Assembly: GCA_964532675.1 (NCBI GenBank)
Contig: CAZHIV010000227.1
Location: 1-35,512, forward strand
Length of the DNA: 35,512 nt
DNA from: an uncultured Planctomycetaceae bacterium
GTDB lineage: Bacteria; Planctomycetota; Planctomycetia; Pirellulales; Lacipirellulaceae
Direction of reading: 5' to 3'
Both the position numbers and the translations under genes were made by a program. Below, in pieces: positions 18,254-35,512 of the stretch. The notes under the pieces were generated by a model that had not been told where the DNA came from, ran no database searches, and saw only the letters and a program-made list of their open reading frames with translations. Within the stretch, counting starts at the first letter, position 1; each line of letters begins with the position of its first letter.

Positions 18254-19010
18254 CGCAATGCTTGGCTCTCGTGGCGATCAGGCCGGCGAGGTAGCCGGCT
18301 TTGAAGCCCGCGTCGATATTCACCACGGCGACGTTGGCCGCGCAACTGTTGAGCATGGAGAGCAGCGCGGAAACGCCGCCGAAATTCGCACCGTAGCCGA
18401 CGCTGGTGGGCACGGCGACGACCGGGCAAGCGACGTAGCCGCCGACCACGCTCGGCAGAGCCCCTTCCATGCCGGCCACCACGACGATCGCATCGGCATC
18501 CTGGAAGTCGGCCAGCCGGGCCGCGAGCCGCTGCGGGCCGGCCACGCCCACGTCGTGAATCATCGTTACCTGCACGCCCATCCATTCGAGCGTCTCGCGA
18601 GCTTCCTCGGCAACGGCCAGGTCGCCGGTGCCCGCCGAAATCACCGCGACATGCGCCGCGGTTCCCCTCCCTTTTAGGGAGGGGCTAGGGGAGGGTTCGA
18701 CCCGTACTGATGGAGCGCATGCCAGCCGAAACGTTCGTCCCACCGCATTGTAGCGCCCCTCGGGAAACGCCGCCGCCAGCCCGGCAGCCTGCTCGGGTGT
18801 GATCCGCGTCGCCAGCACCGGCTGGCCGTGCTCGACGAGCAGGGCGACGATCTCGCGCAGTTGCTCGACCGATTTACCGGGCCCGAACACGACCTCGGGA
18901 AAACCGCAGCGACGCTGGCGGTCGAGATCAAGCGTGACGGCAGACGACCCGGTGACGGCAGTCGGTTTCTCCCCTCCCTCGTAGGGAGGGGCTGGGGGAG
19001 GGTTCTTCAT
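18246..19010 (-). CDS. larB: LarB-like / PurE-related (AIR carboxylase family) protein
   Basis: The N-terminal block is LDLDRQRRCGFPEVVFGPGKS. The PurE-like domain reads VAVISAGTGDLAVAEEA...VAGMEGALPSVVGG...PVVAVPTSVGYG. The ATG at 19010 forms an ATGA overlap with the stop of the upstream PEP-CTERM gene. The gene contains two in-frame GC-rich elements. Confidence 0.75.
   Translation of the reverse strand: MKNPPPAPPYEGGEKPTAVTGSSAVTLDLDRQRRCGFPEVVFGPGKSVEQLREIVALLVEHGQPVLATRITPEQAAGLAAAFPEGRYNAVGRTFRLACAPSVRVEPSPSPSLKGRGTAAHVAVISAGTGDLAVAEEARETLEWMGVQVTMIHDVGVAGPQRLAARLADFQDADAIVVVAGMEGALPSVVGGYVACPVVAVPTSVGYGANFGGVSALLSMLNSCAANVAVVNIDAGFKAGYLAGLIATRAKHCDE
18664..18695. repeat. GC-rich palindrome plus G-tract element, copy 1 (in frame in larB)
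   Basis: The sequence is CCCCTCCCTtttAGGGAGGGGctaggggaggg, a 9-bp stem with a 3-nt loop followed by G-tracts. It is translated (minus strand) as PSPSPSLKGRG in the inter-domain linker. Confidence 0.8.
18971..19002. repeat. GC-rich palindrome plus G-tract element, copy 2 (in frame at the larB N-terminus)
   Basis: The sequence is CCCCTCCCTcgtAGGGAGGGGctgggggaggg. It is near-identical to copy 1 in the same orientation, 307 nt away, and is translated as NPPPAPPYEGG. Confidence 0.8.
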
Positions 19011-20638
19011 CCCCACAGTCTACCGCGCCCCGTTGCCCCCAGACAGAGACCGAGGATCAAGGGCAGCCCTGCGCCAGGCTCGGGCACGGCGGGGCCGAGA
19101 CCGGCGCCATTGCCGCCCGTCATGCCGAAGTTGTTCACCCAGTCGGTGTAACCTTGTGCCCCGTCGTACGAGTTGGGATCACTGCGCCACAAGGCGTAAT
19201 CGGCCGCGTCCACGGTTCCGTCGCCGTTATGATCGCCCGCAAATGCCGCCACGACTTCAAAGCCAATGGGGAATTGGAACAGCGCGTTCTGCACCGCCTG
19301 GCTCAAACTGCTCACGGTGATGGTCCCGGTCTTTAAGCCGACGGTTGATGTGTTGAGCGGGATATGGTGCGATTCGCCGCCGGCCAAAGCGAGCACCGAG
19401 TCCGAGACCGGAACGAACGCTCCATCGACGACGCTGCCGGAAACGGAAATTGTGTAGTCCAGCTCGTCGGCTCCGATCGCCGCCACGACGTCGGCGATGT
19501 TGCTCACCGTCACGTCGAGATCGAACGATTGCCCGAGGGTGAGCGTCGCGGGAACCGTGCCGGTGAACGCGTTCATGATGGCCGGAAGCTGATAGTCGGC
19601 CACTACAGGCAGGTGGTCGGTGACCGTGGCCAACGCGTTCAGAATCTCGTTCTTCGTGTGCGAGAGGACGCCCGGAAAGAAGATGCTGTTGCCGTCGTTG
19701 ATCGCACCGTTGAACGTCGAGCCGTTGTTGCCGAAAGCGCGGTACGAGCCGCTGATGTAGCTCAACCCCTCGCCGTCCAGGAACTCGCCCGTGACGAGCT
19801 GAAAATCGAAGCGGTCATCCATGCCGCCCCCGGAGCCGCAGCCCGAGACGCAGGGCGACTGGGTGTGGACATCGCGGAAATCGAAGTTGTCGTGCCACGG
19901 TCCCACGCGATTGATGGGATCATGGGCCTGCCCTGGGCCGGCCGCCGTTAAGGTGCCCCACGCCGGTTCATCCGAGTTGGAGTCGTAGAAGTTGTGATCG
20001 CCGGCGTAGATCACGTGCGCTCCTTCGCCGAGCGCATTATCAGAATTGTCGCGGATGGCCGTCGCCTCGACGTTTCGCCGCAAGGCGTTCGTTCCCGGTG
20101 CCGGCTGATCCTGGCTCGCCTTGTAATGGCTATTGTAAACGTAAAAGTCGGCGCTCGCGTCGTAGCCAACGGGCCGCAGTTGAAAGCGCAAAGCCTGACG
20201 TGGTTGACCGGAAACGCTCGTCGTTCCCACCGCCGTGTCGGCGATGAGCTGGACCGTTTCCGTCCGGTACACTAGCGTTTGGGTCCTATCGCCGAATCCG
20301 GTGCGGTCACTCATGTCGTAGTGGGCGCCCTGACCCGCATACATGCTGTTGAGCAACGAAACAAAGGCCTGCGTATTTGGCGAGGGACTGTTCGCCCCCG
20401 CGGAGGGATTGTTTTGTTCCTGCAGCAGGAGGATATCGATGGGCTTGGCAATTCCGTTGACAATGTGCTCGCCGATCGACCGCAGGACGATATCCATGTC
20501 CGTCGCCGGGGCGCCTCTCGTGTTGTAGCTGACGACCCGCAGTTGAGCCTGGGCGGCTTCCACGCACACCAGCAGGCCCAACAGCGGGAGCAGCCCGACC
20601 CGCGTTAGGTTGACCAAAAGGCAAGGCGAGTTCATCAT
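19007..20638 (-). CDS. Secreted endonuclease/exonuclease/phosphatase (EEP) family protein with dockerin-like motif and PEP-CTERM anchor
   Basis: The ATG at 20638 gives the signal peptide MMNSPCLLVNLTRVGLLPLLGLLVCVEAAQA. The EEP N-terminal blocks are LRVVSYNTRG and IDILLLQEQ. The C-terminus is GDHNGDGTVDAADYALWR...VPEPGAGLPLILGLCLGATGRGR. Confidence 0.75.
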   Translation of the reverse strand: MMNSPCLLVNLTRVGLLPLLGLLVCVEAAQAQLRVVSYNTRGAPATDMDIVLRSIGEHIVNGIAKPIDILLLQEQNNPSAGANSPSPNTQAFVSLLNSMYAGQGAHYDMSDRTGFGDRTQTLVYRTETVQLIADTAVGTTSVSGQPRQALRFQLRPVGYDASADFYVYNSHYKASQDQPAPGTNALRRNVEATAIRDNSDNALGEGAHVIYAGDHNFYDSNSDEPAWGTLTAAGPGQAHDPINRVGPWHDNFDFRDVHTQSPCVSGCGSGGGMDDRFDFQLVTGEFLDGEGLSYISGSYRAFGNNGSTFNGAINDGNSIFFPGVLSHTKNEILNALATVTDHLPVVADYQLPAIMNAFTGTVPATLTLGQSFDLDVTVSNIADVVAAIGADELDYTISVSGSVVDGAFVPVSDSVLALAGGESHHIPLNTSTVGLKTGTITVSSLSQAVQNALFQFPIGFEVVAAFAGDHNGDGTVDAADYALWRSDPNSYDGAQGYTDWVNNFGMTGGNGAGLGPAVPEPGAGLPLILGLCLGATGRGRLWG

Positions 20639-20803
20639 AGGTCGCAAGCTCCGCCCGTTATGGCGATGAATGCCTATTTTACCAGCCAGGTGCGCAAATG
20701 GGCCAATTAGGGGCGTCACCTCTCGAATCACGCTGATTGATGGCCGCACGGGCCCAATCCGCGGAAAATCGGAGGAATTCATGCGGTTTTCGCCAAGAAT
20801 TCA

Positions 20804-20831: not shown

Positions 20832-20908
20832 CAGGATTGGATTAGTGTTGTCGCGATTCTCGAAGATGCAGGCGTCTAGGCATTTTGGCAAGCAGGAAGG
20901 AAGAGCGT

Positions 20909-22828
20909 ATGAGTATTCGCAATTGGTTAACGCAAACAGTCGCAGTTCTATCCGTCGTATCCCTTTATTCTCAGGTCGAGGCTCAAAACGACATTGTCGC
21001 CGAATGGACATTCGAGACGAGCGTTCCCGAGACCGCAGGGCCCCATGCACCCGAAACGGGGTCTGGTTCCGCCATCGGGTTCCATTCCAATGTGGCGGCC
21101 GTCTATAGCAATCCGGTCGGAAATGGAAGCGCGGAGTCGTTCAGCTCCAACAATTGGCTAGTCAACGACTATTATCAATTTCAAACTAGCACCCTCGGCC
21201 TGAGCGACATCGGGCTGATATTTGACCACACCGGCAGCAATACGGGGCCGCGAGACTTTCAATTCCAATACAGCACCAATGGCTCCACCTTTACGGATTT
21301 TGGTTCACCGTACATGCTGACGAACGATGGGTGGTCGTCGGGCGGCGCAACCACGGCAAGTACTCAAGTTTTTGACTTGACATCGATCGCAGCGCTCGAC
21401 AACCAGGCGGACGTTTACTTCCGGCTGCTGAATAACTCGACGACTGCGATTTCCAGTCCGAATCCCGTCGCACCGACCGGCTCGAGCCGAGTCGACAACG
21501 TGACGATCTACAGCGATTTCGTACCGCCCGATGAGCCGCCTCCTCCTCCCGATCCGCGCCTGCCGCAACCTGGTGATGTGGTCTTTGGGCTGAGCGTCGG
21601 CAGCGCGGCGAACACGCTTGAGTTAGTGAGTGGACCGGCTGCGATGGACGGCGGCAGCTTTGCCCCCGGCCCCTGGTCGAGCGACTCGTTTATCCAGTCC
21701 GTCGCGTTCGACAATTACGACGGGCAATCGCACAATGCCCGCGGCAACCTGCTGGGTGTCAATTTTTCCGTGGGCGGCGGCGGCAACAGTGGAGCGATTT
21801 ACAGCTTCGCCACCCAGGGATCGATCCCCGCGCCGGCCGCCCAGTTGATCGGCAATACGGGCGCCACCGACCCCGCCGGGCAGGACGGCAGCCTCACGCA
21901 ATCCGCGCTAGCTGGGCTCTCAGTCAGCCCGGCTAACTCCAAGGTCGCCGTGGTCGGCGTCGATACGGGCAGGGTGATCGTCTACGATTATACGCCCGGC
22001 GACACGATGGGTTCCGGCGCCGCGCTGGCTGACGGCCGAGAGTCGGCGGCGGTCCTCGATACGGGGTCCACGCAGGGAACCGCTTGGCTCGATGACGACA
22101 CCGTCCTGGCCTTTTCGGCCGGCGGAAATCTTTTTGAAGTCGATGCCGACACGATGGCAACTTCCAACGAGGCTACCGTCGAGACCACGATCGTCGGGAT
22201 TGGTACGTTCGCTGGCACACCCTCTGTCGGCAGCGATTTTGCGTCGCTTGCCTACAATCCGGACGTGTCGCAATATCTCTATGCCCTCTACAGCGGTTTT
22301 TCCGGAGAATTAGGGTCGATAACCCATTTGTACGTGTTGGATCCCAGCGATAGTTACAACCAACTGGCCGACATCGAATTGAGCGCGTCCTCGGAGACCG
22401 GCCGGGAAATCGCGCTGGACGCCGACGGCAACCTGTTTATCGGCGGTTTTGGCGGCACCATCGATTTTTTACCCGCCAGCGCGGTTCTGAACCCCGCCTC
22501 GCTGACCAATAACTCGTCGGTGGACTGGTACACGTCGTCGACATTCTCGGTCTTCAACGGCCTTGATATCGGCTTCGGCGAGGCGGGCCTGCCTGGCGAC
22601 CACAACCAGGACGGCACGGTGGATGCCGCCGATTATGCTTTGTGGCGCAGTGATCCAGGTGCGTACGATGGCGCCCAAGGGTACACCGATTGGGTCAACA
22701 ACTTCGGCGCGACGTCCGGTCCCGGAGCTGGAAGCGGCCCCGAGGCGGGCGCAGTGCCGGAGCCAACCAGCCTGGCGATGCTGCTGGTCGGCTTCATCGG
22801 CCTCTGGTCCGCACGCCGACGCGCCTAG
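20909..22828 (+). CDS. Large secreted protein of unknown family with dockerin-like motif and PEP-CTERM anchor
   Basis: The ATG at 20909 (MSIRNWL) is preceded by aggaaggaagag, and a signal peptide ends at VEAQ. The C-terminus is GDHNQDGTVDAADYALWR...VPEPTSLAMLLVGFIGLWSARRRA. A PPDEPPPPPDP linker is present, and the central region looks beta-propeller/repeat-like. Confidence 0.7.
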   Translation: MSIRNWLTQTVAVLSVVSLYSQVEAQNDIVAEWTFETSVPETAGPHAPETGSGSAIGFHSNVAAVYSNPVGNGSAESFSSNNWLVNDYYQFQTSTLGLSDIGLIFDHTGSNTGPRDFQFQYSTNGSTFTDFGSPYMLTNDGWSSGGATTASTQVFDLTSIAALDNQADVYFRLLNNSTTAISSPNPVAPTGSSRVDNVTIYSDFVPPDEPPPPPDPRLPQPGDVVFGLSVGSAANTLELVSGPAAMDGGSFAPGPWSSDSFIQSVAFDNYDGQSHNARGNLLGVNFSVGGGGNSGAIYSFATQGSIPAPAAQLIGNTGATDPAGQDGSLTQSALAGLSVSPANSKVAVVGVDTGRVIVYDYTPGDTMGSGAALADGRESAAVLDTGSTQGTAWLDDDTVLAFSAGGNLFEVDADTMATSNEATVETTIVGIGTFAGTPSVGSDFASLAYNPDVSQYLYALYSGFSGELGSITHLYVLDPSDSYNQLADIELSASSETGREIALDADGNLFIGGFGGTIDFLPASAVLNPASLTNNSSVDWYTSSTFSVFNGLDIGFGEAGLPGDHNQDGTVDAADYALWRSDPGAYDGAQGYTDWVNNFGATSGPGAGSGPEAGAVPEPTSLAMLLVGFIGLWSARRRA

Positions 22829-24541: not shown

Positions 24542-24718
24542 GGTCCGCGCTGCGAAGTGGTATGCGGGCCTAAAACCACAGTCGCAGTGATATTGCCCGG
24601 ATAGGGAGCTTTATTGAGGACTGCGCGGCGAATGAACCGATGCGGATCGCGGCTGTCAGCTGAACCAGTTTCAAAACCATCGATGCTTGCGGCACAGCGG
24701 CACAGTGGCAAAGTAGCA

Positions 24719-24803
24719 CAGTGGCACAGGCCGCTGGCCTGTGTCACAGTTTTGCAGTTTTCCGCACCGGCTAGCAGCCGGTGCCACTAATTTTTGAAAC
24801 GGG
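24719..24803. repeat. 85-nt double-hairpin repeat, copy A
   Basis: It is about 92% identical to 27674..27757 in direct orientation. Hairpin 1 is gtggCACAGGCCgctGGCCTGTGtcac followed by agTTTTg. Hairpin 2 is GCACCGGCTagcAGCCGGTGC followed by cactaaTTTTTg. It is preceded by degenerate GCACAG(C/T)GG mini-repeats at 24688..24730. Confidence 0.85.
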
Positions 24804-24863
24804 TCCCTATCAGCCGTCAGCTTTCAGCCAGAAAAGGTTCATTCACTGCGCAGGGTCAATAGG

Positions 24864-25685
24864 TTACTCAGCCGCGACGGCCACCAGTTCCTCGCTCACT
24901 GCTTCGATCTGCTGGGCGGTGAGCCGAGGCAGCTTGTCGGCGAATCCGACCAGTAGCGCGAGATCGCCCAGGCGATTGATTTGCCGCGGCGTGCCGTGGC
25001 CGAGGTAGTGCAGCGCTTCGACGGCGTCGGGCGTGAAGATTTCGCGTGCCGCCCCGGCCGCCTGCAAGCGGTGACGGACGTAGCCGGCGGTTTCTTGGGC
25101 GGTGAACGAGCGAACGAGGGCTTTCACCGCGGCCCTCTCCTCCAGGCTCGTCAGGCGGCCGACCGCCGAAACCAGGCCCATTTGTCCCACCAGGAGCAGC
25201 GTGAGCGTCGGTTGGCCGGCCACCTCGAAATTGAGCAATAGACGCAGCGTTTCCAGCGCGCCGCAGTCTTCGAGCAGGTGGGCCTCATCGATCGCCACCA
25301 CCGCGTGCCGGCCCCGTTGGGCGTTCTGCTGCAACAGGAACTCGAGCCGGCGGACGCTTTCCTCGATCGTGTGCCGGGGCGGGTCGGCCGGCGGCGCCCC
25401 AAGCTGCTCCGCCAGGTAAACCAGCAGGTCGCGGCTCGACATCTGGGGAAATACGAGGTGGACCTGGGGCCGAAACGTTTCGCCCAGCTCGCCGCGAAAG
25501 AGCTGCACGAGCATCGTCTTGCCGACGCCCGCCGGGCCCGCCAGCAGCGCCGCCGCACGGCGATTCTCCACCGCGTAGCGAAGCTTCAGCAGCGCCGCCT
25601 CGTGGGATTCGCAGGAGTAGAACGTCGCCCGATCCGTGCCGGGTTCGAACGGCTTATTCGCCAGTTGCCAATAGTCGAGATACAT
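24864..25685 (-). CDS. ExeA/GspA/MshM-like AAA ATPase (PEP-CTERM-locus type putative secretion ATPase-like)
   Basis: The N-terminus is YLDYWQLANKPFEPGTDRATFYSCESHEAALLKLRYAV, the family-typical y..fFgL...PF start. Walker A is GPAGVGKT and Walker B is the DEAH-like VAIDEAHLL. It has 273 aa, with no TM or peptidoglycan-binding domain. Confidence 0.7.
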   Translation of the reverse strand: MYLDYWQLANKPFEPGTDRATFYSCESHEAALLKLRYAVENRRAAALLAGPAGVGKTMLVQLFRGELGETFRPQVHLVFPQMSSRDLLVYLAEQLGAPPADPPRHTIEESVRRLEFLLQQNAQRGRHAVVAIDEAHLLEDCGALETLRLLLNFEVAGQPTLTLLLVGQMGLVSAVGRLTSLEERAAVKALVRSFTAQETAGYVRHRLQAAGAAREIFTPDAVEALHYLGHGTPRQINRLGDLALLVGFADKLPRLTAQQIEAVSEELVAVAAE

Positions 25686-25708
25686 GGGAAGAGGTCAGGG
25701 GTCGGAGG

Positions 25709-26707
25709 TCAGGCTTGTGAGGTCGCCCTTGGCGTAGCAACGCGGTTCTCAATCGTGCCCAACAGCTCGCAGCCACTGCGGCCGAGGTGCGCCGCCAAGG
25801 TTGCCAGTTCGCTGGTCGCGGCCGGCTTCGGACCGGTGACGGCGAGTATCGCGTCGAGCCCCATGTTGCGCGTGAGCTCGAGCACGATCGGCTGCGACGT
25901 GGCATCGAAAAAAGCGCCCGTATCGATCAACACCAGGTCGTAGGCATGCCGCAGCACGCCGGCCGTAACCACGGCCTGCAAACCGCCGACGAGGCGCAGG
26001 ACATTGTTCGGCTTCCGGTCACCGAGCGCCAACAGATCGAAACGGTTGTCCTTGGCGCGGACGACCGCATCGGCCAGCGGCCCGCCGTGCTGGAGCACTT
26101 CCTGCCAGCCGATCGTCGGGACCGCTTCGAGCCACGAAGCCAGCCGCGGACGGCAAAAATTGCCCTCCACCAGGATCACGCGGCGATCGCGGCACGCCAG
26201 TCGCGCCGCCAGGCACAAGGCGGTCGTCGTCGCTCCCAGGCCGGATTTCAGACCCATCACGCCGATCAGCGACCGGCCTCCTCCCGCTTCCGTCACGAGC
26301 CGGTCGGCGACGCCGTCGAGCTGTGTGCCGCACCGCTCGGCGAGCGCCCGGCAGATAGGGGGCCATTGAAACGCGGCGATCGTCGTTCCCGGCCGAAGGA
26401 ACTCGCCTTCTGCCAGCTGCGCGCCGGGCGCCGCGTGGAGCGGCCGGGCAATAAACGCCGAGAGCGGTTGCTTCTCGGCCCCGCCGCGGGCTGCATGGCT
26501 TTGGGTTTTCGCGCCGAGGGCGGCACCCTCTGGCAGTGGACCGTATAGGGCCGACCGCTCGCCCGTCGCGGAGGCGACGGAATTCATCGCCACGCCTGCG
26601 CCGGTCGGTGCCGGCCGGACGGAGCCGGTGATCGCCGGGGTCGCCGGCGCGGCCTGAGGGTCGTCGTGACGGTATGCCTTAATGAAGGCTTGGTCGGTTG
26701 TCGTCAT
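25709..26707 (-). CDS. ParA/MinD/BY-kinase-like P-loop protein with degenerate Walker A, plus a ~140-aa low-complexity N-terminal region
   Basis: The C-terminal half aligns by eye to the BY-kinase/ParA fold. It shows VMGLKSGLGATTT (Walker A position), VILVEGNFCRPRL (Walker A' position), YDLVLIDTG (Walker B) and LLGTIENRV. The P-loop Lys is replaced by Ala. ATG start at 26707. Confidence 0.6.
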   Translation of the reverse strand: MTTTDQAFIKAYRHDDPQAAPATPAITGSVRPAPTGAGVAMNSVASATGERSALYGPLPEGAALGAKTQSHAARGGAEKQPLSAFIARPLHAAPGAQLAEGEFLRPGTTIAAFQWPPICRALAERCGTQLDGVADRLVTEAGGGRSLIGVMGLKSGLGATTTALCLAARLACRDRRVILVEGNFCRPRLASWLEAVPTIGWQEVLQHGGPLADAVVRAKDNRFDLLALGDRKPNNVLRLVGGLQAVVTAGVLRHAYDLVLIDTGAFFDATSQPIVLELTRNMGLDAILAVTGPKPAATSELATLAAHLGRSGCELLGTIENRVATPRATSQA

Positions 26708-27656
26708 GTTGGACCTGTGGGGTAGGAGCCGCGATGGAACCGGTCAAGCGGGCCACGGCCGACGACGAGGGCGAGGTTGGCCTCGCGCCCGGCTGCCGCG
26801 CGGCGTTCGGTTGCGCCGAATCGCTTTGCGGTTCTGGCCGGCTTGCGAAGCGCGAGCCTTCGACGACTGTTGTTCCAGGCTTGCCGATTTGCGAAAGTTC
26901 TTCGCTCGCAGCTTCTTCCTGGTCAGATAAAACGCGTTCCTCGGAGTCGTCGGACGTCTGCACCTGCGGCACGAGTCGCCAATTCGATACGGCAGCTCGC
27001 GGCGCGGCCGGTACTACCGATGATTGCGGGTTGTCAATTGCCGAGCGGCGACGCTCCTTCGGCCGCAACCCGGTTCTGGGCGTCTTCGAGCCCAACGGTC
27101 CTGCCGCGGTTGGTGGCGAGTCTGGCGACTCAAAGGTATGAGTGGCCGCAGGAACGGCTTCCGGTTTCAGCGACTGTTGGGCGGTCGTAGTGACCGGTTC
27201 CAGGCCGTCGTCGGCCCGCTCAGATTGGCGTCGGATCGTCAGGATCGACGTCCCGATGGCCGTGAACAGCGCGAACAAGAACAGGAAACGGGCGACCGGC
27301 GCGAGCGTGTCGGCCAGGCTTGTGCGTGGGATTTCAAACGGGTTCGAGCGGGGCAGTATGGGCGAATCGCCGCGGAACTTGTGCCCAGCCTTGCCCGGCA
27401 GTATATGCGGCTGCCCCGGCTGAGACGCGGTCGACGCGCCCCCGCTCGCAGTTGCACGATCCAATTTGCGTCTGCTCCGCTCCGCACTTTCCGGCGGGTC
27501 GAACCGATAACTGACGAAGCCCGCTGCCGCCGCTCGGTTCGGCCGCGGAGTCGCGTGCGATACTTCACCGGTCAAGTCGGGCAGCCGCGCCAGGACGGGC
27601 CACTCGGAGCCGTCGACGCGCGAAGCCGAATCGGATGTCGTGGAAGTTGTTTTCAA
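26679..27656 (-). CDS. Hypothetical single-pass membrane protein, Pro/Ser/Ala-rich
   Basis: The ORF has high third-position GC. One TM helix is present (about aa 119..141, LAPVARFLFLFALFTAIGTSILTI). There is no internal Met, so the start must be non-ATG (TTG at 27656 in the ORF track). It overlaps the next gene by 29 nt. I recognise no family. Confidence 0.45.
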   Translation of the reverse strand: MKTTSTTSDSASRVDGSEWPVLARLPDLTGEVSHATPRPNRAAAAGFVSYRFDPPESAERSRRKLDRATASGGASTASQPGQPHILPGKAGHKFRGDSPILPRSNPFEIPRTSLADTLAPVARFLFLFALFTAIGTSILTIRRQSERADDGLEPVTTTAQQSLKPEAVPAATHTFESPDSPPTAAGPLGSKTPRTGLRPKERRRSAIDNPQSSVVPAAPRAAVSNWRLVPQVQTSDDSEERVLSDQEEAASEELSQIGKPGTTVVEGSRFASRPEPQSDSAQPNAARQPGARPTSPSSSAVARLTGSIAAPTPQVQHDDNRPSLH

Positions 27657-27673
27657 CGTGTTACCCGACGGCT

Positions 27674-27757
27674 CAGTGGCACAGGCCGCTGGCCTGTGTC
27701 ACAGTTTTGCAGTTGCCCGCACCGGCTGGCAGCCGGTGCCACTTGTTTTGAAACCGG
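27674..27757. repeat. 85-nt double-hairpin repeat, copy B
   Basis: A direct copy of 24719..24803. The first 41 nt are identical. It lies 18 nt upstream (in gene sense) of the 27656 start, inside the 340-nt spacer after the kinase gene. Confidence 0.85.
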
Positions 27758-27996
27758 TTCTCGTGCGAAAGTGAATACGCGCGCAGCATCAAACCTTTGG
27801 AGACGCTGCCAGCCCCAGTGAGTCTATCGGGTAGCGGTTGCGGGGCCCTTGAGGATTGGCGCAATCGCGGACGAGAACGTCCGCTAGCGCTAGCAATGCT
27901 GCTGCTCGAGCGACTCGCGCTCACCTGTGGCGGCCAAATCCACCGTTTTCGCGATCAAGCGGGCGAATTAACGGCTGCGGATTCTGCAGATTAGCT

Positions 27997-30900
27997 TTAA
28001 GGCGCCCGGCGGGCGGTGAGCGCGTCGCCGTTGCGCCAATCGTCCGCCAGCCAGATAATTGCCGTGCCGTCGCGGCTGGAGGTGAGCACGTTGCGGCCCC
28101 GCGGCGAGAAACTTACCGACGTGACTTCCTGCGTATGCCCAGGTAGCGAAAGGACTTCTTTGCCGGTCCGGGCGTCCCACAACTTGGCGGTGTAATCCTG
28201 GCTGCCGGTGAGGGCCCGCCTTCCGTCGGGCGAGATGGTGACGGAAGTGATCGCCGCCGTGTGGCCAGCCAGCGTGTGCAGCACTTCTCCGGATTCGCAG
28301 TTCCAAATTTTGGCCGTCTTGTCCTGGCTGCCTGTGATGACCTGCGTTCCGTCGGGCGAGAACCGGCCCGAAAGGACAGCCCACTGATGCCCCTCGAGCG
28401 GCTTCAGCGTTTCGCCACTGTCGCGGTCCCAGATGCGAGCCGTTTTGTCGCCGCTGACCGTGAGGATCCGCTTGCCGTCGGGCGAAAATGTGGCCGCCAA
28501 TATGCGGGCCGTGTGTCCGCGCAACACGGCGCCGCTCGGCCGGCCCGTTTCCACGTCCCATAGCCGGGCCGTTCCGTCATCGCTCGCTGTCAGCAGGTAT
28601 CGTCCATCGGGCGAGAATTCCACCGAGTTGATGTAGCCCGCGTGGCCGCTGTCCAGCTTGCGGATCGCCCGGCCTGTCGCCGCATCCCAAATCTTGGCGG
28701 AATGGTCCCAGCTTCCGGTTGCTACGAGCTTTCCGTCGGGCGAGATGGCGGCCGAGGCCACCGCGCCGTGCGGGCTGTACCGCACGGCAGAGCGGCGCGA
28801 TTCGGGTTTCTGCAATTTCACCGCTTCGACGTTCCACAACTGGGCATCGTTGCCGCCGATCGTCAGCAGGTGCCGGCCGCCGGGCGCAAATGTCGCCGCC
28901 CAAACTTCGCCGCCCAGCGCATTGAAATCCAGAATCGGCTCGGCGAGCCGCCCGGGTGCCTGGTTGGCGGAGCCGCGGGCCGCCGAAAGGTCCCACAGCC
29001 GCACGAGCTTGTCCGCCGACGAGGCCAGCACCGCCGTGCTGCCGTCCGGCGAAAAGCCCGATGAGTTGAACGGCGCTCCCGGCGACTGCACGGAAGCGAG
29101 CTGCGTGGCGTCGGCCAGTCGCCACAGCCGCGCCATGCCGTCGTCGCACGTCGTCAGCGCCATGGTGCCGTCGGCAGACATGTCGAGCGAGCTGACCCAA
29201 TCCGGGTGTGTCAGCACGAGCTGCCGCAATTCTTCGCCGCTGGCCACATCCCACTGGCCGCAGGTGCGATCGCCGCTGGCGGTGATCAGCCTTCGGCTGT
29301 CGAGCGTGAAACGCAGGGCCGTGATCGTGCCGTTGTGACCGGTCACCTCGCGCACAAAGTCCCATCGGGGCTCCGAATTCTGATTCGTCCGCCGCCAAAG
29401 TCGCACGCGGCCTCCCTCGCCGCCGCTGGCCAGCCACTCGCCCGATGGCGAGAACGCCAGCGCCGAGACCTCCCGGATATGTCCGCTCAGCGTGGCAGCC
29501 AGCTTGCCAGTTCGAGCGTTCCAAATTTGGATGTCGGTGCCGACGCTGCCCGTAGCGATCCACTTGCTGTCGGGCGAAACGGCCAGCGTGCCGATCCGGC
29601 CGGTGGGGGTGAGGACCGTCTCTTCGGTGCCGGCGGCCAGCTTCCAGATCCGCACCGAGTTATCGCCTGCGCCGGTAGCAAGGTGCTGGCCGTCGGGAAA
29701 GAAAACGGCGCCGGACACCAGGAATTCATGTCCCTCTTCAAAGCGTCGCAGCGGCTTGCCGTTGGCCGCGTCCCACAGGCTGGCCGTGCGATCGCGGCTG
29801 GCCGTCACGATCTGGCGGCCGTCGGGTGAAAACCGCGCCGAGAGGACCGCGTCCTCGTGGCCGGAGAAGGCGGTCGCATGCAGTACGCGCACTTCCTGAT
29901 AGCCTTGCACGTTCCAAACCCGCGCTTGCTGGTCGTCGCCACCGGAGAGGACCCATTGGCCGTCGGGCGCGAACGCGCAGGCCCGCACGGGACTGCCGTG
30001 CCCGCGCAGCGCCTTCACTCCCTCGCCGGTTGCCACGTCCCAGACGCGGATCGTATTGTCTTCGCTGCCGCTGATCACCAACTGGCCGTTGGGCGAGAAC
30101 GCGACCGCCCGCACCGGGCCGTCATGGCCGCTGAGAATCATATGGTCGGCCCGCGGATCGGCGGCGCCTTCCAGCCGACGGCCGATATCGACCGGCTGAA
30201 CTTCGTCCGGATTCCAAATCATCACGCGGTTGTCGTAGCCGCCCGTGCACACGAGTGTGCCGTCCGGCGAGAACCTGGCCGAATACACCGCGCCGCCGTG
30301 GCCGTTGAACTCGGTGAGTCGGGCGTAGTGGGGCTGGGGGCTGGGGGCTGGGGGCTGGGGGCTGGCAGAGGGCTGTTCAGTGACTTCTTGCTTCTGCCAT
30401 ACGACCGCGCGTCCGTCCTGGCCGGCGGTGACAATTCGCTTTGCGTCGGGCGAGAACTCGGCCGCCCAGACCCACCAATTGTGTCCTTTGAACTCCTGCA
30501 GCATGCGCCGGGTGGCCAGGTCCCAGAGTCGGGCCGTGTTGTCGTACGAACCGCTCAGAAGCTGCCGGCCGTCGGGCGAGAAACACACCGAAAGTACACC
30601 GTCTCTGTGGCCGGGCAGCGTCGCCAGCACTTTGCCGTCGGCCGCGCTGTGGATTTTGATCGTTTTGTTGCTGCTGCCGCTGGCAATGTACCGGCCGTCC
30701 GGCGAATACGCCACCGAGTGGACGTACTGGCCGTGCTGCACCGGCGGGAAACGCAGCGTGCCTGTTTGGGCATCGCGCACGGTGATCTTGCCGCCGAAGT
30801 CGCCCGTGACGAACGAGCGGCCGTCCGGCGAGTAGGCCACGGCGTCGATCGGGCCTTCGGCCGCGTAGGCCGCGGTGCCGAGCTGTGTCAGATGAACCAG

Positions 30901-33120
30901 CCGCCCCCACTCCCAATTGCGCAGCTCCGGATTGCTTTCCTGGAGCAGCTCGTAGGCATAATCGAACGCGTTGTCGTTGATCTTGGCGGCCGCCAGGCCG
31001 ATCTGCGCGACGTACGCTTCGTATTCCTCGCGCTCCTTGGCGAGCTCGGCCGCTTCGCGCTGCTTTTCTTCCTCTTGGCGGGCCAGTGCTTCATTCGCTC
31101 GGGCTTTCTCGGCATCGCGACGCCGCTGATCGGCCAGCTCGCGGGCCTTCTCCTCTTCCAGTTTGGCCAGCGTGGCGGCGTCGCGGTCTTTCTCGGCCTG
31201 CTGTCGGGCGGTCGCTTCGCCCTCCTGCGCGGCCACGGCCAGGTCTTTTTGATTGACCGCTTCGTCGCGCGCCCGGCTCACTTGGAAATAGGCCACCGTG
31301 ACCGTGACCACCACCACCGCCGCCAACCCGGCCACGGCCCGCTTGGCCAGGCGCAGCCGGCGCTGGCGGGCATCGCGTTCGGCGCGGGCCGCGTCGATTT
31401 GCTTCGTCAGCGCCTGGTGCTCGGCCTGGCTGCCGTCCAACAGCGACGCCGCCAGATCGAAGTCGCCCTTGTTGAGCGCGCACGTGGCATAGTCGCGCTG
31501 CGTCTCGGTCAAGAGGAGCCGCGCCCGCTGATTGCCGTTCCACAGCGTTAGCGATTCCTGGAAGCCGTACAGCGCGCGGGCGTACGGCTGGTAGTCGTTC
31601 GTCTCCCGTGCCTTTTGCAGATTCTGGTTTGCGTGCGCCGACAGGACCAGGCTTTCGGAGTGCGACTGATAGACCCGGATCGCTTCTTGAAACTCTTTGA
31701 CGGTCTGGTAGCGATCCTCCTGCCGCGTGGCCATGGCCTTGAGCGCCAAGGCCTTCAATTCGCCATCGTAGCGGATCGGGTCAATGCGGTTCTGCGACGC
31801 CGCCATCAGGCACTGCATCACGTCGCGGCCGGAGTGCGGCGGCTGGCCGCCGATAATCTCGTAGAGGATTGCCCCGAGGAGGTAGACGTCGCTAGTCTTA
31901 TTGATGTTCTCGACCGGGCCGCGGGCCATTTCCGGCGCCATGTAGGCCGGCGTGCCGCCCAGGCTGTCGGCCTGGTACACCGTATCCACGTGGGCGAACT
32001 CGGGCGTGATGCGCGCGAGCCCCCAGTCCATCACCAGCACTTCGCCGAAATCGCCCAGCATCACGTTTTCGGGCTTCAAGTCGCGGTGAATCACGCCGCC
32101 CGCGTGGGCAAACGCCACCGCGTCTGCCACGCGCAACAGGATGCTGAGGTTCTCGTCGAGCTGTTTCTGGTGGATGACCTTGTCCCACGGCGTGCCGCGA
32201 ACCCGCTTCATCGAGTAGAACAACGCTCCCTCGTCGTTCGCGCCCAGGTCGTAAATCGGCACGATGTTCGGATGATCCAGCTCGCCGGTGACGACCGCTT
32301 CGGAGATGAACTTGTCGCGTTGGTCCTCGCGCACTTTGGCAGAGGGCTTGAGCATTTTCACGGCGACGGTCCGCGCGATGGACGACTGGTGGGCCGCGTA
32401 CACCACCCCCATGCCGCCTTCGCCGATGATGTCCAGCAGCTCGTAATCGGGCACTTCCGCCAGGTTCATCGGCGGCGCGCCGCCGTTCGTGCGCTTTTCG
32501 CGAATGTAGCGCGACTTCACCGGCAGCGACGAGCGAAAGCCCGATACCGTCTCCCGCTGCCGGATGGTCTGCCCCTGCCGGGCGTCGCGGTCGAACGTGC
32601 CGCGCCACTGCGAGTCGAGCCGCCGCGCGTCGGCCGACGAGGCGTCCAGGTCGATCGTCCGGTCGCTTTCGTACGTGTGAGTCGAGCGGCGCGTTGCCTT
32701 CTTGCTCGGATCCTCGGCGGTCGGGCCTACCGGGGCATCGAACATGATCGTCATGTCCGACTGGTCGGGTACCGTGGGCGCCTTGCGCTCGGGGCCGCTG
32801 GCCTTCTCCGGCGAGGCGGCCGCATCCTTCTCACGATCCGCCTCCGATGTGTCCGCCTGGCTCGCTTGGATCGTCGCGCCGCCTTGGCCCGTGTCGGTCA
32901 GTTCGAAGTCCAGCGATTCGTCCGACGCGGCGGTATCCGAAACGACATGCTCCTGGGTAGCGCCCGATGGTGGGTTGCCGCCGTCTGGATCGCGCAACAA
33001 TCGCTTGTCCTCAATTGTGCGCTGGGCCAGCTTCCGCAGCACGGCACCGCAATGAGGGCATTTGCCGGACGACACGGCCGCCTGATCTAGTTCGCCTTGG
33101 CAAGCATGACACGTTCGCAT
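27997..33120 (-). CDS. Membrane-spanning Ser/Thr protein kinase with N-terminal zinc ribbon, coiled coil and about 22 WD40 repeats
   Basis: The ATG at 33120 gives MRTCHACQ...CPHCG. Hanks kinase motifs are GEGGMGVVY, VAVKML, HRDLKPEN, DWG and GTPAYMAPE (about nt 31670..32445). The TM helix is AVAGLAAVVVVTVTVAYF (about 31282..31344), preceded by RQRRLRLAKR. An E/K/R/A-rich coiled coil follows, then WD40 blades (GH...FSPDG...WD) from about 30870 to the stop codon. Confidence 0.88.
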   Translation of the reverse strand: MRTCHACQGELDQAAVSSGKCPHCGAVLRKLAQRTIEDKRLLRDPDGGNPPSGATQEHVVSDTAASDESLDFELTDTGQGGATIQASQADTSEADREKDAAASPEKASGPERKAPTVPDQSDMTIMFDAPVGPTAEDPSKKATRRSTHTYESDRTIDLDASSADARRLDSQWRGTFDRDARQGQTIRQRETVSGFRSSLPVKSRYIREKRTNGGAPPMNLAEVPDYELLDIIGEGGMGVVYAAHQSSIARTVAVKMLKPSAKVREDQRDKFISEAVVTGELDHPNIVPIYDLGANDEGALFYSMKRVRGTPWDKVIHQKQLDENLSILLRVADAVAFAHAGGVIHRDLKPENVMLGDFGEVLVMDWGLARITPEFAHVDTVYQADSLGGTPAYMAPEMARGPVENINKTSDVYLLGAILYEIIGGQPPHSGRDVMQCLMAASQNRIDPIRYDGELKALALKAMATRQEDRYQTVKEFQEAIRVYQSHSESLVLSAHANQNLQKARETNDYQPYARALYGFQESLTLWNGNQRARLLLTETQRDYATCALNKGDFDLAASLLDGSQAEHQALTKQIDAARAERDARQRRLRLAKRAVAGLAAVVVVTVTVAYFQVSRARDEAVNQKDLAVAAQEGEATARQQAEKDRDAATLAKLEEEKARELADQRRRDAEKARANEALARQEEEKQREAAELAKEREEYEAYVAQIGLAAAKINDNAFDYAYELLQESNPELRNWEWGRLVHLTQLGTAAYAAEGPIDAVAYSPDGRSFVTGDFGGKITVRDAQTGTLRFPPVQHGQYVHSVAYSPDGRYIASGSSNKTIKIHSAADGKVLATLPGHRDGVLSVCFSPDGRQLLSGSYDNTARLWDLATRRMLQEFKGHNWWVWAAEFSPDAKRIVTAGQDGRAVVWQKQEVTEQPSASPQPPAPSPQPHYARLTEFNGHGGAVYSARFSPDGTLVCTGGYDNRVMIWNPDEVQPVDIGRRLEGAADPRADHMILSGHDGPVRAVAFSPNGQLVISGSEDNTIRVWDVATGEGVKALRGHGSPVRACAFAPDGQWVLSGGDDQQARVWNVQGYQEVRVLHATAFSGHEDAVLSARFSPDGRQIVTASRDRTASLWDAANGKPLRRFEEGHEFLVSGAVFFPDGQHLATGAGDNSVRIWKLAAGTEETVLTPTGRIGTLAVSPDSKWIATGSVGTDIQIWNARTGKLAATLSGHIREVSALAFSPSGEWLASGGEGGRVRLWRRTNQNSEPRWDFVREVTGHNGTITALRFTLDSRRLITASGDRTCGQWDVASGEELRQLVLTHPDWVSSLDMSADGTMALTTCDDGMARLWRLADATQLASVQSPGAPFNSSGFSPDGSTAVLASSADKLVRLWDLSAARGSANQAPGRLAEPILDFNALGGEVWAATFAPGGRHLLTIGGNDAQLWNVEAVKLQKPESRRSAVRYSPHGAVASAAISPDGKLVATGSWDHSAKIWDAATGRAIRKLDSGHAGYINSVEFSPDGRYLLTASDDGTARLWDVETGRPSGAVLRGHTARILAATFSPDGKRILTVSGDKTARIWDRDSGETLKPLEGHQWAVLSGRFSPDGTQVITGSQDKTAKIWNCESGEVLHTLAGHTAAITSVTISPDGRRALTGSQDYTAKLWDARTGKEVLSLPGHTQEVTSVSFSPRGRNVLTSSRDGTAIIWLADDWRNGDALTARRAP
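30330..30363. repeat. (GGGGGCT)n heptanucleotide tract (about 5 units) inside the kinase-WD40 CDS
   Basis: A ggggct unit is followed by four perfect gggggct units. The tract is translated (minus strand) as SPQPPAPSPQP between two WD40 blades. Confidence 0.9.
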
Positions 33121-33167
33121 AGTTAATCTCGGCTTTCGCTCAGAGCCGCCGACAGACCCCACAGGTC

Positions 33168-35512
33168 CTATTGTACTCGCTCATAATCCACCGCCGTGTG
33201 AAAAGCCAGCGAGCCGGCGGGTTCACCCCGCCGGGATAAACCCGGCGGCTCGCCGCCGTATGCGTTCTTCGGCTCGCCAGCGCCTCGCCGCAGCCGGCCC
33301 AATCGCCGCAGCCGCTGCCAGCTTCGATCGTTGGCTTGCGCGAGAGCGGCGTCGAGCCGCTGCGACCATTTGCCAGCGCTCGCCGCCAATGCCAGCCCAG
33401 CCAGCGGCGCCGACCAACGCACCAAGCGAGGACCGGCCGGCATTTCGTCGGGCGCGTTGCTCGAGGCCTGTGGTCCGCCCTGCGTGTCCGTATCGTTCGG
33501 CAAGCGTTCCAGCAGCGGGTTCTCGTCGAGCGGCAGCACGTTGTCGGCCGGGATCGCCGCCTCGCTCGTCGGCTGCCGATCGCGCAGGCCTTCCGAGACG
33601 TCCGCCGGGTCGACGATCCGGCCGCGCCACGCCCGAAGCACCGGGTCGTAGTACCGGCGCACCGACACATCGATCACCATCCGCCACGATCCGTTTTCCA
33701 AGTGAATCCGAATCTGATAACGGTTTTCCGGCAGCGTCGCGAACAGCTCCGGCAGGTTCAGCAGGACTTCGTCGTTTAGCTTGTACGGCTCGAACTCCTC
33801 GCCGTCCGGAGAGATCACGACCAGCGCCAGGTAGCGTTCCGAGGTGGCCGCCGTATCGCTGCTCGATACGCGCACGTCGGTCGACTGCAGGCTCTGAACG
33901 GTGGACGACGGCTGATCCAGCACCACTTCCGGTGGCGCGGGCGGAGCGAACTCCAGCCGCGGCACAAGCGGCGTCGTATCGATGGCCACCATCGTCGTCT
34001 CGATGCCCGGATTGGTGATCGCGACGGACTGCAAATTGCTCACGCCGGCTTGAATTACTCCCGCAATCAGCGCGTCGTCGTCGAGAATCTTCACCGTGAT
34101 GACGATGTCGGCCGTTGGATTCGACGGGTCCGGCGGGCCAGTGAAAATGTGCTCGAGCGTGAAGCTCACCGGAGACCCCGGGGGCGTCGGCCCCGGGTGG
34201 ACGGCCGCGATCACGAACCGCTCATCCGCCGGCAGATTCAGCCTGTCGCCCCAGTCGACCAGAACCTGGAACGAATCCGCGCCCGGGTCGGAAAAGGTCA
34301 GGTTCAGCGTGGTGCGGCCCGTAGGCTCCACGTCGGTTGCCGAGATCGGCTGCAGCGTGGGGTTAACGTTTAGAACCCGCACGTCGATCGCCGACTCGAC
34401 AAAGTCGCCCGCCGCCGCGGAGCCCGTCAGGAATAGTTCGCTCGTCGCGAACGCCGCCATGTCGTCGTCCGCCACGCGCACCCGGATCGTGTATACGTTG
34501 TCCGCATCGTTGTCGACGTACGTATGCGTGATGCTGGCGAGCGTTCGCTGCAACCCGGCGGGCCCGCTCACCGTGAGCTCCTCGGAGTTGCCGTCTCCCC
34601 AAAGCACGAACGCCCGAAAGCTTTCCGTCGGAAAATTGATCAACCGATCCGTGAAGCTGCCGCTAATGCTCAGCGACTCGCCCTCGTTAATCTCCAGATC
34701 GCTGACATTGACAACCAGATTCTCCGGTGCGTGGTTTTGTACGACGACGTTGATCGTCGCGCTGCCGCTTCCGGTGTCGTCGTCGGTCACCACGAGCGAT
34801 ACGGGGAACACGTCGCTCGGCGTGCCGCTCGCCGGATGGTCGTCGTTGTAGTGATGGCTCAGCGTCAAACGGCGCGTTGTCGCGTTCCACGTGTAGGTGG
34901 TGCCGCCGACGGTCGTCGATGGAATGCTGCTCAGCCCGAGTCCGGTGATTTCATCCGTCACGCCGTCTTGCCAATTGACGACGATGGAAAACACGTCCAG
35001 CGTGCCAACGTCCGAGATAGTGGCCGAAATGGTGGCGACCGAATTCTCAAGGATCGTCGTTCCCACTGTGTTGATCAGCAGCGGCGCCACGTTCTTCACC
35101 AGCACCATGGCGCTGGCGGTGCCGGCCTCGGTGTCGTCATCCGTGACGGTGACGTCGATCGTGTAGGTATCCGCGTCGGTGGCGGTGGGGTTGTCGTCGA
35201 GGTACTGGTGGCTGACGGTGAACGTGCGGGCGACCGGGTCCCAGTCGATGCCGTCGGCCGCCTGGGTGAGGGCCACGTTGCCCAGCATGAAGCTCTGCAT
35301 GTCGTCGGGGCTCAAGGGGTCGCCCCAGTCGACGTCCAGCGTGAACGTATCGAGGCTGCCCGGGTCGCTGATCGAGCCGGAGAGCACGGCCGTGCCGTTC
35401 TCCTCGATCATGTCCACGGGATCGAGCGTCACGGTGGGCGCCACGTTCTTGACCAGCACCATGGCGCTGGCGGTGCCGACCTCGGTGTCGTCATCCGTGA
35501 CGGTGACGTCGA
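33168..35512 (-). CDS. Giant surface-type protein with tandem ~120-aa PKD/cadherin-like repeats (5'-partial, continues beyond the window)
   Basis: There are at least 4 repeats of the pattern V.V.NVAP...(D/N)WGD...TH.Y.DD....Y.I.V.V.DDD. The reading frame stays open upstream of the Met at 35462 and repeats the preceding unit. A non-repetitive ~270-aa C-terminal region follows. The stop codon lies 47 nt before the kinase start. Confidence 0.7.
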   Translation of the reverse strand, partial: DVTVTDDDTEVGTASAMVLVKNVAPTVTLDPVDMIEENGTAVLSGSISDPGSLDTFTLDVDWGDPLSPDDMQSFMLGNVALTQAADGIDWDPVARTFTVSHQYLDDNPTATDADTYTIDVTVTDDDTEAGTASAMVLVKNVAPLLINTVGTTILENSVATISATISDVGTLDVFSIVVNWQDGVTDEITGLGLSSIPSTTVGGTTYTWNATTRRLTLSHHYNDDHPASGTPSDVFPVSLVVTDDDTGSGSATINVVVQNHAPENLVVNVSDLEINEGESLSISGSFTDRLINFPTESFRAFVLWGDGNSEELTVSGPAGLQRTLASITHTYVDNDADNVYTIRVRVADDDMAAFATSELFLTGSAAAGDFVESAIDVRVLNVNPTLQPISATDVEPTGRTTLNLTFSDPGADSFQVLVDWGDRLNLPADERFVIAAVHPGPTPPGSPVSFTLEHIFTGPPDPSNPTADIVITVKILDDDALIAGVIQAGVSNLQSVAITNPGIETTMVAIDTTPLVPRLEFAPPAPPEVVLDQPSSTVQSLQSTDVRVSSSDTAATSERYLALVVISPDGEEFEPYKLNDEVLLNLPELFATLPENRYQIRIHLENGSWRMVIDVSVRRYYDPVLRAWRGRIVDPADVSEGLRDRQPTSEAAIPADNVLPLDENPLLERLPNDTDTQGGPQASSNAPDEMPAGPRLVRWSAPLAGLALAASAGKWSQRLDAALAQANDRSWQRLRRLGRLRRGAGEPKNAYGGEPPGLSRRGEPAGSLAFHTAVDYERVQ

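Follow-up and report, generated by a model that had tools for sequence, protein, structure and literature searches.

A conserved membrane protein, pseudo-kinase and AAA+ ATPase gene trio of Pirellulales and its likeness to exopolysaccharide assembly sub-modules

In an exosortase A (XrtA) locus of Sphingomonas, genes follow one another in the order TIGR03007, TIGR03018-like, a 576-amino-acid (aa) protein, TIGR03015-like, deacetylase, FemAB, glycosyltransferase and xrtA, and the sub-module formed by TIGR03007, TIGR03018 and TIGR03015 consists of a membrane protein, a P-loop protein with the fold of bacterial tyrosine kinases (BY-kinases) and a soluble ExeA-like ATPase of about 270 aa. Operons encoding an ATPase, a Wzz protein and a CapB-type kinase are also found in the XrtD-type exopolysaccharide (EPS) loci of plasmids from Palleronia and Jannaschia. 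In Sphingomonas LM7, prmE, encoding an AAA+ ATPase, adjoins the genes for Wzz (prmF) and CapB (prmG), and its deletion abolishes the exopolysaccharide (PMC11340318); an ATPase of this kind had not previously been linked to polysaccharide assembly, and its involvement was regarded as unexpected by the authors (PMC11340318). Here, these systems are compared with a trio of genes located on a 35,512-nucleotide (nt) stretch of DNA (the window) from an uncultured Planctomycetaceae bacterium of the Lacipirellulaceae (contig CAZHIV010000227.1, assembly GCA_964532675.1). The trio encodes a bitopic membrane protein, a ParA-like protein and an ExeA-like ATPase, and it lies next to the genes for a giant protein with PKD-like repeats and a serine/threonine kinase with WD40 repeats. 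A first-pass annotation, made from the sequence alone, had taken all five genes for one candidate envelope or signalling system that could be assigned to no described pathway.

In the direction of transcription, on the minus strand, the trio begins with a 325-aa protein with one transmembrane (TM) helix at residues 113-142 (26679..27656). The stop of this gene overlaps by 29 nt the start of the gene for the 332-aa ParA-like protein (25709..26707), in which a disordered N-terminal part of about 100 aa precedes the P-loop domain, and after a gap of 23 nt comes the 273-aa soluble AAA+ ATPase of the ExeA/GspA/TIGR03015 type (24864..25685). A species-level genome scan with this ATPase gave 80 loci, all from Pirellulales (Lacipirellulaceae, Thermoguttaceae, and Pirellulaceae), with Lacipirellula limnantheis, Adhaeretor mobilis, and Botrimarina colliarenosi among the cultured carriers. 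The closest locus belongs to a metagenome-assembled genome named 'Pirellulales bacterium', the ATPase of which is 89% identical to that of the window. Neighborhoods were counted after clustering all open reading frames (ORFs) of 83 distinct Pirellulales loci together with the window, making 84 loci. In 77 of them, the ATPase gene has the ParA-like gene directly before it, and four of the seven others have no upstream sequence. In 56 of 62 loci, a single-TM ORF on the same strand ends within a few tens of nt of the start of the ParA-like gene; the 29-nt overlap recurs in 13 loci, distant ones included, and a 4-nt overlap is present in about ten others. A 749-aa metagenomic gene call (P0134) is even a fusion of the ParA-like protein with the ATPase. 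Where the giant and the WD40 kinase are absent, the trio persists, with MetH, ThiC, and further housekeeping genes beside it; its neighbors across loci also include Fpg and LarB/LarE-like genes. In more distant Planctomycetia, with ATPases 35-45% identical to that of the window, the ParA-like gene is missing, and a small bitopic protein with its N-terminus inside and with the C-terminal motif of the trio's membrane partner directly precedes the ATPase. The trio is thus a genuine, widely conserved and uncharacterised module across Pirellulales, as had been suspected from the window; no description of it was found in the literature on TIGR03015, planctomycete ExeA, or combinations of AAA+, Wzz and GspA.

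Regarding the middle protein, annotated at first as a 'pseudo-ParA', the prefix holds while the family does not. Family profiles yield weak P-loop matches only, the best being TIGR03018 with E = 2e-8 and 34 bits, against a cut-off of 231. In the AlphaFold2 model, residues 105-325 have a predicted local confidence (pLDDT) above 90 and the first 100 residues are disordered. The top 50 Foldseek matches of this model in the PDB are all BY-kinases (Wzc, VpsO, BceF, CapAB, and Etk), with E-values down to 4e-11; MinD and Soj are absent from these 50 and rank below BY-kinases by sequence. The P-loop of the window protein reads GLGATT, with alanine where the Walker A lysine would be expected; the motif is G-x-G-[C/A/R/S/T]-T-T in 76 of 77 homologues, the lysine being kept in one. 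When the protein is aligned with a real kinase from an exosortase locus, the GKT of the latter pairs with GAT. Most homologues keep VDA(D/N)F as Walker A' and (L/I)D(L/T)G as Walker B, the window protein having VEGNF at Walker A'. The C-terminus, ...GTIENRVATPRATSQA, is free of tyrosine and has no tyrosine cluster, while real exosortase-locus kinases end in ...GKYDYYS, ...AAYDYY or ...FGYYGKYGK. Neither lysine of the deviant Walker A motif of ParA and MinD, KGGxGK[ST], is conserved in the family, and a ParA/MinD identity was rejected on account of these missing lysines and of the BY-kinase fold. Taken together, the fold, the lost Walker A lysine and the lack of a tyrosine cluster indicate, at the level of sequence and structural model, that the middle protein is a BY-kinase-fold pseudo-enzyme (referred to below as the pseudo-kinase).

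The N-terminus of the pseudo-kinase starts with a conserved motif, M-T-T-T-D-Q-A-F-I-K-A-Y, given as M-x-x-(I/T)-D-Q-A-F-I-K-A-Y for Pirellulales. A possible common helix pattern appears in N-termini of partners of ExeA-like ATPases, few sequences having been compared: GspB carries MSYILDALRRADA, and the BY-kinases of exosortase loci carry SLLERAANVY, RLRVAIDRARA, and RLQAAIAKARA (sources: the N-terminus of 25709-26707 in the window, L091:10651-11262, L092:8523-9389, L090:11470-12318, and L093:3184-4254). From these sequences, the N-terminal helix of such partners may be a common docking motif.

The ATPase, in contrast to the pseudo-kinase, appears from its sequence to be the only member of the trio that keeps its catalytic motifs, with intact Walker A (GPAGVGKT) and Walker B (IDEAH) sequences and with G53, G55, and K56 invariant across alignments. 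Its annotation as ExeA-like is borne out by matches to Pfam AAA_22 (E = 4.5e-17) and to TIGR03015, the latter with 134.5 bits and E = 4.4e-39 over residues 1-267 of 273, below the curated cut-off of 324.5 bits. With the same profile, proteins of real XrtA and XrtD loci reach 318 and 260 bits, respectively. Relatives number 2431 at E < 1e-10, and the best 120 of them are 75-90% identical and nearly all exactly 273 aa long. The protein has no TM segment, and its AlphaFold2 model (pLDDT 92) has an AAA+ initiator-clade fold. A sequence search of the PDB found nothing, and the fold search gave generic initiator-clade matches only (ORC/Cdc6 and TnsC), which are uninformative on function. Members of the clusters of distant ATPase representatives, from Thermogutta and Planctomycetaceae, are named only 'ExeA family protein'. 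The idea that the ATPase is unusually conserved was rejected, its median identity to relatives (63%) being like that of housekeeping neighbors (59-73%). Two further arrangements of the ATPase were also seen: P0251 (593 aa), in which it is fused to a HD-GYP-like C-terminal region, and L097:6001-7948, where it is followed by an HD_5 protein, a coiled-coil protein, Poly_export, and a GT2 glycosyltransferase. As for the membrane partner, it consists of an N-terminal 'WPVLARLPD', Pro/Ser-rich low-complexity sequence and a C-terminal 'ARLTGSI'; its homologues are likewise of low complexity and share the motifs 'PVLARLPD' and 'RLTGxI' at the respective ends. It has no Pfam or NCBIfam family match.

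TIGR03015 and TIGR03018, the best NCBIfam matches of the ATPase and the pseudo-kinase, respectively, are paired families, and the TM protein, kinase and ATPase occur in the XrtA locus of Sphingomonas in the same order as in the trio. The profile of the pseudo-kinase family matches BY-kinases of exosortase loci at 3e-19 and 2e-16. Among the annotated comparison loci, which were retrieved via a tblastn search of plasmids, the ATPases of Palleronia and Jannaschia are 31-32% identical to that of the window over its full length. A link with these two families and with EPS-assembly accessories had already been suspected and is supported by these matches and by the shared order; on the other hand, the notion that the combination fits no pathway can be dropped, a TM protein, a BY-kinase and an ExeA-like ATPase together being a sub-module of exosortase/Wzy EPS loci. 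The genome is also rich in PEP-CTERM proteins, another point in common with XrtA systems. The trio nevertheless departs from this sub-module in several respects: its kinase has neither the Walker A lysine nor the tyrosine cluster, its membrane partner has a single TM helix and no Wzz domain, there is no outer membrane protein (OMP) gene between the kinase and ATPase genes, and housekeeping genes are found in the vicinity instead of genes for exosortase, Wza, glycosyltransferase or deacetylase. In the PrmE-PrmF-PrmG and XrtD operons, which resemble the trio in encoding an AAA+ ATPase with a Wzz-type protein and a CapB-type kinase, the ATPase gene comes first, the kinases are intact with tyrosine clusters, and the operons lie inside complete Wzy/Wza EPS clusters. 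The split BY-kinases of Firmicutes (CapA/CapB and TkmA/PtkA) offer another parallel, a membrane modulator gene being followed by that of a translationally coupled cytoplasmic protein of BY-kinase fold, and CapAB structures are among the Foldseek matches of the pseudo-kinase. However, CapA has two TMs, a Wzz-like loop and a C-terminal tail that activates a live kinase, whereas the trio has a single-pass partner and a dead kinase.

From these comparisons, the explanation that we favor, with somewhat better than even confidence, is that the array consists of two adjacent units, in which the trio is a degenerate stand-alone homologue of the EPS sub-module made of a chain-length determinant, a BY-kinase and an AAA+ ATPase, the giant and the WD40 kinase being a neighboring pair. 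A number of observations weigh against this reading of the trio. Both the TIGR03015 and TIGR03018 matches are far below their cut-offs, and by BLASTP the ATPase is roughly equidistant from XrtD-type ATPases (110 bits), GspA (101 bits) and XrtA-type ATPases (92 bits). Similarity of the membrane partner to Wzz or other polysaccharide co-polymerase (PCP) proteins was undetectable by Pfam search, and PrmE is likened to the window ATPase by gene composition. Moreover, tblastn with xrtA, xrtD, chain-length determinant, Wza and OMP queries detected no exosortase, chain-length determinant, Wza or OMP in the window and 89 planctomycete loci (1.47 Mb), so that a link with the export of polysaccharides or PEP-CTERM proteins is a matter of homology and not of context.

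In nine loci, the gene next after the ATPase, and on its strand, encodes a PMT_2/ArnT-like membrane glycosyltransferase (L036, L045, L047, L048, L050, L051, L053, L058, and L071; at about 10.9 kb in locus coordinates), with ORF-based gaps of at most 132 nt. These loci belong to one clade of the ATPase tree outside the Lacipirellulaceae-like group, three of the nine being labelled Thermoguttaceae, and the position of the PMT_2 gene suggests that the operon has four genes there. In many loci, PEP-CTERM proteins are encoded beside the trio and convergently to the ATPase, and in 17 related loci a PEP-CTERM protein with a Lamin-tail domain is encoded convergently right after the ATPase. The PMT_2 follower and the flanking PEP-CTERM proteins are hints towards a role in envelope glycans.

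The strongest competitor, though an improbable one in our estimation, is that the trio is an accessory of the GspA/GspB (ExeAB) or MshM kind, in which the ATPase, together with the bitopic protein, would assist the assembly of a secretin or of a type II/type IV pilus-like machine through the peptidoglycan and would serve the numerous planctomycete DUF1559 pseudopilins. GspA-GspB (ExeA-ExeB), which assemble secretins in type II secretion, and MshM of MSHA pili share with the trio a homologous AAA+ domain and a small bitopic Pro-rich partner encoded alongside; the window ATPase shares 33% identity (101 bits) with the ATPase domain of a GspA from Ideonella that adjoins GspB, and homologues are named 'ExeA family', 'general secretion pathway protein A' or 'MshM' in the sources. 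The alignment, however, covers residues 1-249 of the 548-aa GspA, and the window ATPase has neither the TM nor the peptidoglycan-binding domain of the latter. In the distant Planctomycetia outside Pirellulales, the TM protein and the ATPase form a pair alone, the ATPase being preceded only by the small bitopic Pro-rich protein, which is like GspB, and the GspB N-terminus 'MSYILDALRRADA' resembles that of the pseudo-kinase, 'MSAIDQAFIRAY'. In Pirellulales, by contrast, a protein of BY-kinase fold stands between the two partners, and such a protein is typical of polysaccharide systems and not of type II secretion systems (T2SSs); the TM partner is not recognisable as GspB, having no match to the T2SSB/GspB family, and no secretin and no core genes of T2SSs or type IV pili were seen in the flanks. 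Genes for DUF1559 pseudopilins often lie nearby, but this adjacency carries little weight because DUF1559 genes are so numerous in planctomycetes. A further proposal, to which we give very little credence, holds that the ParA-like protein works with the ATPase as a cytoplasmic device for positioning or division in the FtsZ-less, budding Pirellulales, unrelated to export. The pair does behave like core genes, occurring throughout Pirellulales among housekeeping genes, and there are weak MinD/ParA/Ssd matches. Nonetheless, the structure search places the middle protein with BY-kinases and not with MinD or ParA, the deviant Walker A lysines required by the dimer ATPase cycles of these proteins are absent, and the long Pro-rich region of the membrane partner, predicted to be periplasmic, points to the envelope.

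The five co-oriented minus-strand genes, at 24,864-35,512 by ORF listing and translation of the window, were described correctly in the first-pass annotation, and the spacing recomputed from ORF coordinates (47 nt, 340 nt, a 29-nt overlap and 23 nt) reproduces the gaps given there, the 47-nt gap between the giant and the kinase presupposing that the kinase starts at the internal ATG 33120 and not at GTG 33162. The outermost gene (33168..35512 and beyond, minus strand) has a frame that is open to the end of the window and encodes the C-terminal 780 aa of the giant, with four repeats of about 120 aa bearing N-x-x-P, W-G-D, and D-D-D motifs followed by a non-repeat C-terminal region; Tandem Repeats Finder detected no DNA-level repeat in this gene. 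The label 'PKD repeats' is weakly supported by the fragment in the window, which has the four repeats with their motifs and a PKD_4 match (E = 0.003, 18 bits) below the gathering cut-off of 27; the orthologues, which are 1656-3665 aa long, carry PKD_4 matches and always precede the kinase.

The kinase itself (27997..33162, minus strand; 1721 aa from the GTG, with the start at GTG 33162 or ATG 33120) is a Hanks-type Ser/Thr kinase with a PknB-type profile match at 1e-65. A zinc ribbon of the CxxC...CxxC type at the N-terminus is followed by a kinase domain at residues ~240-520, in which the motifs GxGxxGxV, VAVK, HRDLKPEN, DWG (replacing DFG), and APE are intact. After a single TM at 603-631, about 1,100 aa of coiled coil and some 21 WD40 blades are found (Pfam WD40 E = 3e-187 over 17 stretches), and the earlier description of a TM Hanks kinase with a large post-TM WD40 part is therefore accurate. 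The WD40 portion is predicted to be periplasmic, in agreement with the positive charge on the N-terminal side of the TM. PkwA-type Hanks kinases likewise combine a Pkinase domain with WD40 beta-propellers; compared with these, the window kinase is very large, its TM would put the WD40 part outside the cytoplasm, and it is always preceded by the PKD-like giant. Full-length orthologues, 50-79% identical, are present in 36 loci, and the level of conservation is that of housekeeping enzymes (median 64% identity). The giant and the WD40 kinase always co-occur, with gaps of ~46-130 nt, and are a tight unit of their own. In a PADLOC search, the trio and the giant were without match and the kinase matched generic kinase models only, hence there is no reason to consider it a defence system.

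To what extent this pair belongs with the trio can be judged from the loci that are informative in each clade, as split by the ATPase tree. Of 42 informative Lacipirellulaceae-like loci, 35 have the pair upstream of the trio, as against 0 of 22 from the other Pirellulales clades, where the trio is kept and sits among housekeeping genes. As a control in the Lacipirellulaceae-like clade, the AIRC/NnrD genes, which are unrelated and flank the trio on its other side, are kept in 33 of 39 informative loci, and this similar retention implies that inherited synteny explains the adjacency. The junction between the kinase and the trio is broken in seven loci (L013, L022, L026, L037, L055, L079, and L084) and has genes inserted in two others (L010 and L073). 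Among cultured carriers, Lacipirellula limnantheis I41 has all five genes, and Adhaeretor mobilis HG15A2 and Botrimarina colliarenosi Pla108 have no adjacent kinase pair. The presence of the pair beside the trio is thus most simply inherited synteny and not an obligate functional link, and the supposed five-gene system is most likely two neighboring units; given the restriction to one clade, a retention like that of AIRC/NnrD and a junction broken or interrupted in at least nine lineages, the claim of a single conserved system is not supported. The comparison of gene order among relatives, proposed with that claim as a check, does find the adjacency conserved, albeit no more than neutral synteny predicts and not as a property of the trio. 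In two long-read assemblies (L002 and L008), the WD40 kinase, AIRC, NnrD, and DHH genes are split into several ORFs, which are probably assembly frameshift errors and not gene decay.

A single envelope or signalling system of all five genes, in which a periplasmic WD40 array senses the surface, possibly through the PKD giant, and the kinase phosphorylates the trio so as to replace the lost autophosphorylation of the BY-kinase and control export, nevertheless deserves consideration, doubtful as it is in our judgment. The order is retained not only in the 35 of 42 loci but also in L088, down to ~50% identity for the kinase and ~58% for the ATPase, and even in loci with a different downstream flank; all five genes share their orientation, the kinase is as conserved as housekeeping enzymes, and a dead BY-kinase beside a live Hanks kinase would be a suggestive pairing. 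Likewise, the adjacency of kinase and trio outlasts several other rearrangements of the flanks, and a different, mid-size Ser/Thr kinase with a TM (~520-630 aa) is encoded 2-9 kb from the trio in about 14 loci that have no WD40 kinase (L033, L036, L045, L048, L051, L053, L055, L057, L058, L063, L069, L071, L078, and L079), downstream of the trio in most, and upstream on the opposite strand in Botrimarina. These two observations speak against a complete separation of the units and leave a residual hint of a link between some kinase and the trio. On the other hand, chance proximity of a kinase is not rare because planctomycetes encode many Ser/Thr kinases, the absence of the pair from all 22 informative loci of the other clades and the control on the other side of the trio bear on this proposal as well, as do the nine interrupted lineages, and the gap of 340 nt between the kinase and the TM gene is large, variable, and contains here a hairpin repeat that is not found in the loci of relatives. 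More speculative still, and quite unlikely as a joint statement, is that in Lacipirellulaceae a dead BY-kinase/AAA+ export scaffold is under a Hanks kinase whose periplasmic WD40 array of ~1,100 aa monitors the condition of the cell surface, possibly that of the PKD giant, Hanks phosphorylation replacing the cycle of tyrosine autophosphorylation, and that, more generally, the ExeA-like ATPases of T2SSs (GspA-GspB), exosortase EPS loci and the trio may all dock on a partner N-terminal helix of the form h-(D/E)-x-A-h-x-(K/R)-A.

The hairpin repeat just mentioned, 90 nt long, occurs twice in the window, copy A (24716..24805) lying 59 nt downstream of the ATPase stop and copy B (27671..27760), which contains two hairpins, 15 nt before the start of the TM gene. 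The copies are 89% identical, with 0 expected by chance, and the description of the trio as 'repeat-bracketed' is to this extent correct; the repeat is, however, peculiar to this genome, having no match in 84 related loci and none in metagenome contigs. Its RNA fold on the coding strand is no better than that of shuffled sequences (z = -1.3), while on the plus strand the copies look like terminators, both hairpins of copy A being followed by T-runs. An 8-nt tandem repeat, GGCACAGY x4 (24691-24730), leads into copy A, and copy B is without this lead-in. A function of the repeat as part of the system was rejected in view of its absence from the 84 related loci and of its fold, and it looks like a genome-specific element resembling repetitive extragenic palindromes, or a terminator for convergent plus-strand genes.

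Elsewhere in the window there are housekeeping genes (recG, a radical-SAM MqnC/CofH-like gene, UbiA, cytochrome b/Rieske, ribF, and nnrD), one DUF1559 pseudopilin and four PEP-CTERM proteins (2437-3201, 3746-4459, and 20885-22828 on the plus strand; 19007-20782 on the minus strand); the first two of these are paralogous, their N-terminal regions being almost identical. By tblastn with xrtA and xrtD queries no exosortase is detectable in the window, in keeping with the first impression of a region rich in PEP-CTERM proteins and without a visible exosortase. A 269-aa ORF on the minus strand (11913-12722), situated between a tRNA-synthetase-like gene and a cytochrome b/c gene, has an N-terminal double CxxC (MWCSNCQQ...CSRCQQ) and is without Pfam match. 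An Rfam scan of the whole window gave zero matches.

Returning to the trio as a degenerate homologue of the EPS sub-module, the following mode of action can be envisaged. The bitopic protein would anchor the pseudo-kinase at the cytoplasmic membrane, with translational coupling of the two genes through the conserved 29-nt or 4-nt overlap. The pseudo-kinase would act as an oligomeric scaffold or adaptor, and its conserved N-terminal helix (…DQAFIKAY), with a pattern like that of GspB and of exosortase-locus kinase N-termini, would recruit the ATPase. ATP turnover would then drive or license the assembly or export of an envelope polymer or glycoconjugate synthesised from genes elsewhere, and this export may be tied to the abundant PEP-CTERM surface proteins.

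With regards to gene neighborhoods in general, this locus calls for caution, as family-wide adjacency shows a functional system only if it is set against how often unrelated genes in the flanks are kept. In the trio, a module of a known type is seen in a new and degenerate form that stands by itself. It represents a natural minimal version of the polysaccharide loci with ExeA-like ATPases: that the ATPase is conserved at the housekeeping level although the tyrosine kinase is dead and the Wzz domain is gone suggests that the essential activity of the sub-module is that of the AAA+ ATPase on a scaffold and not tyrosine phosphorylation. In the poorly understood biogenesis of the planctomycete envelope, the trio is a defined target for which cultured carriers exist.

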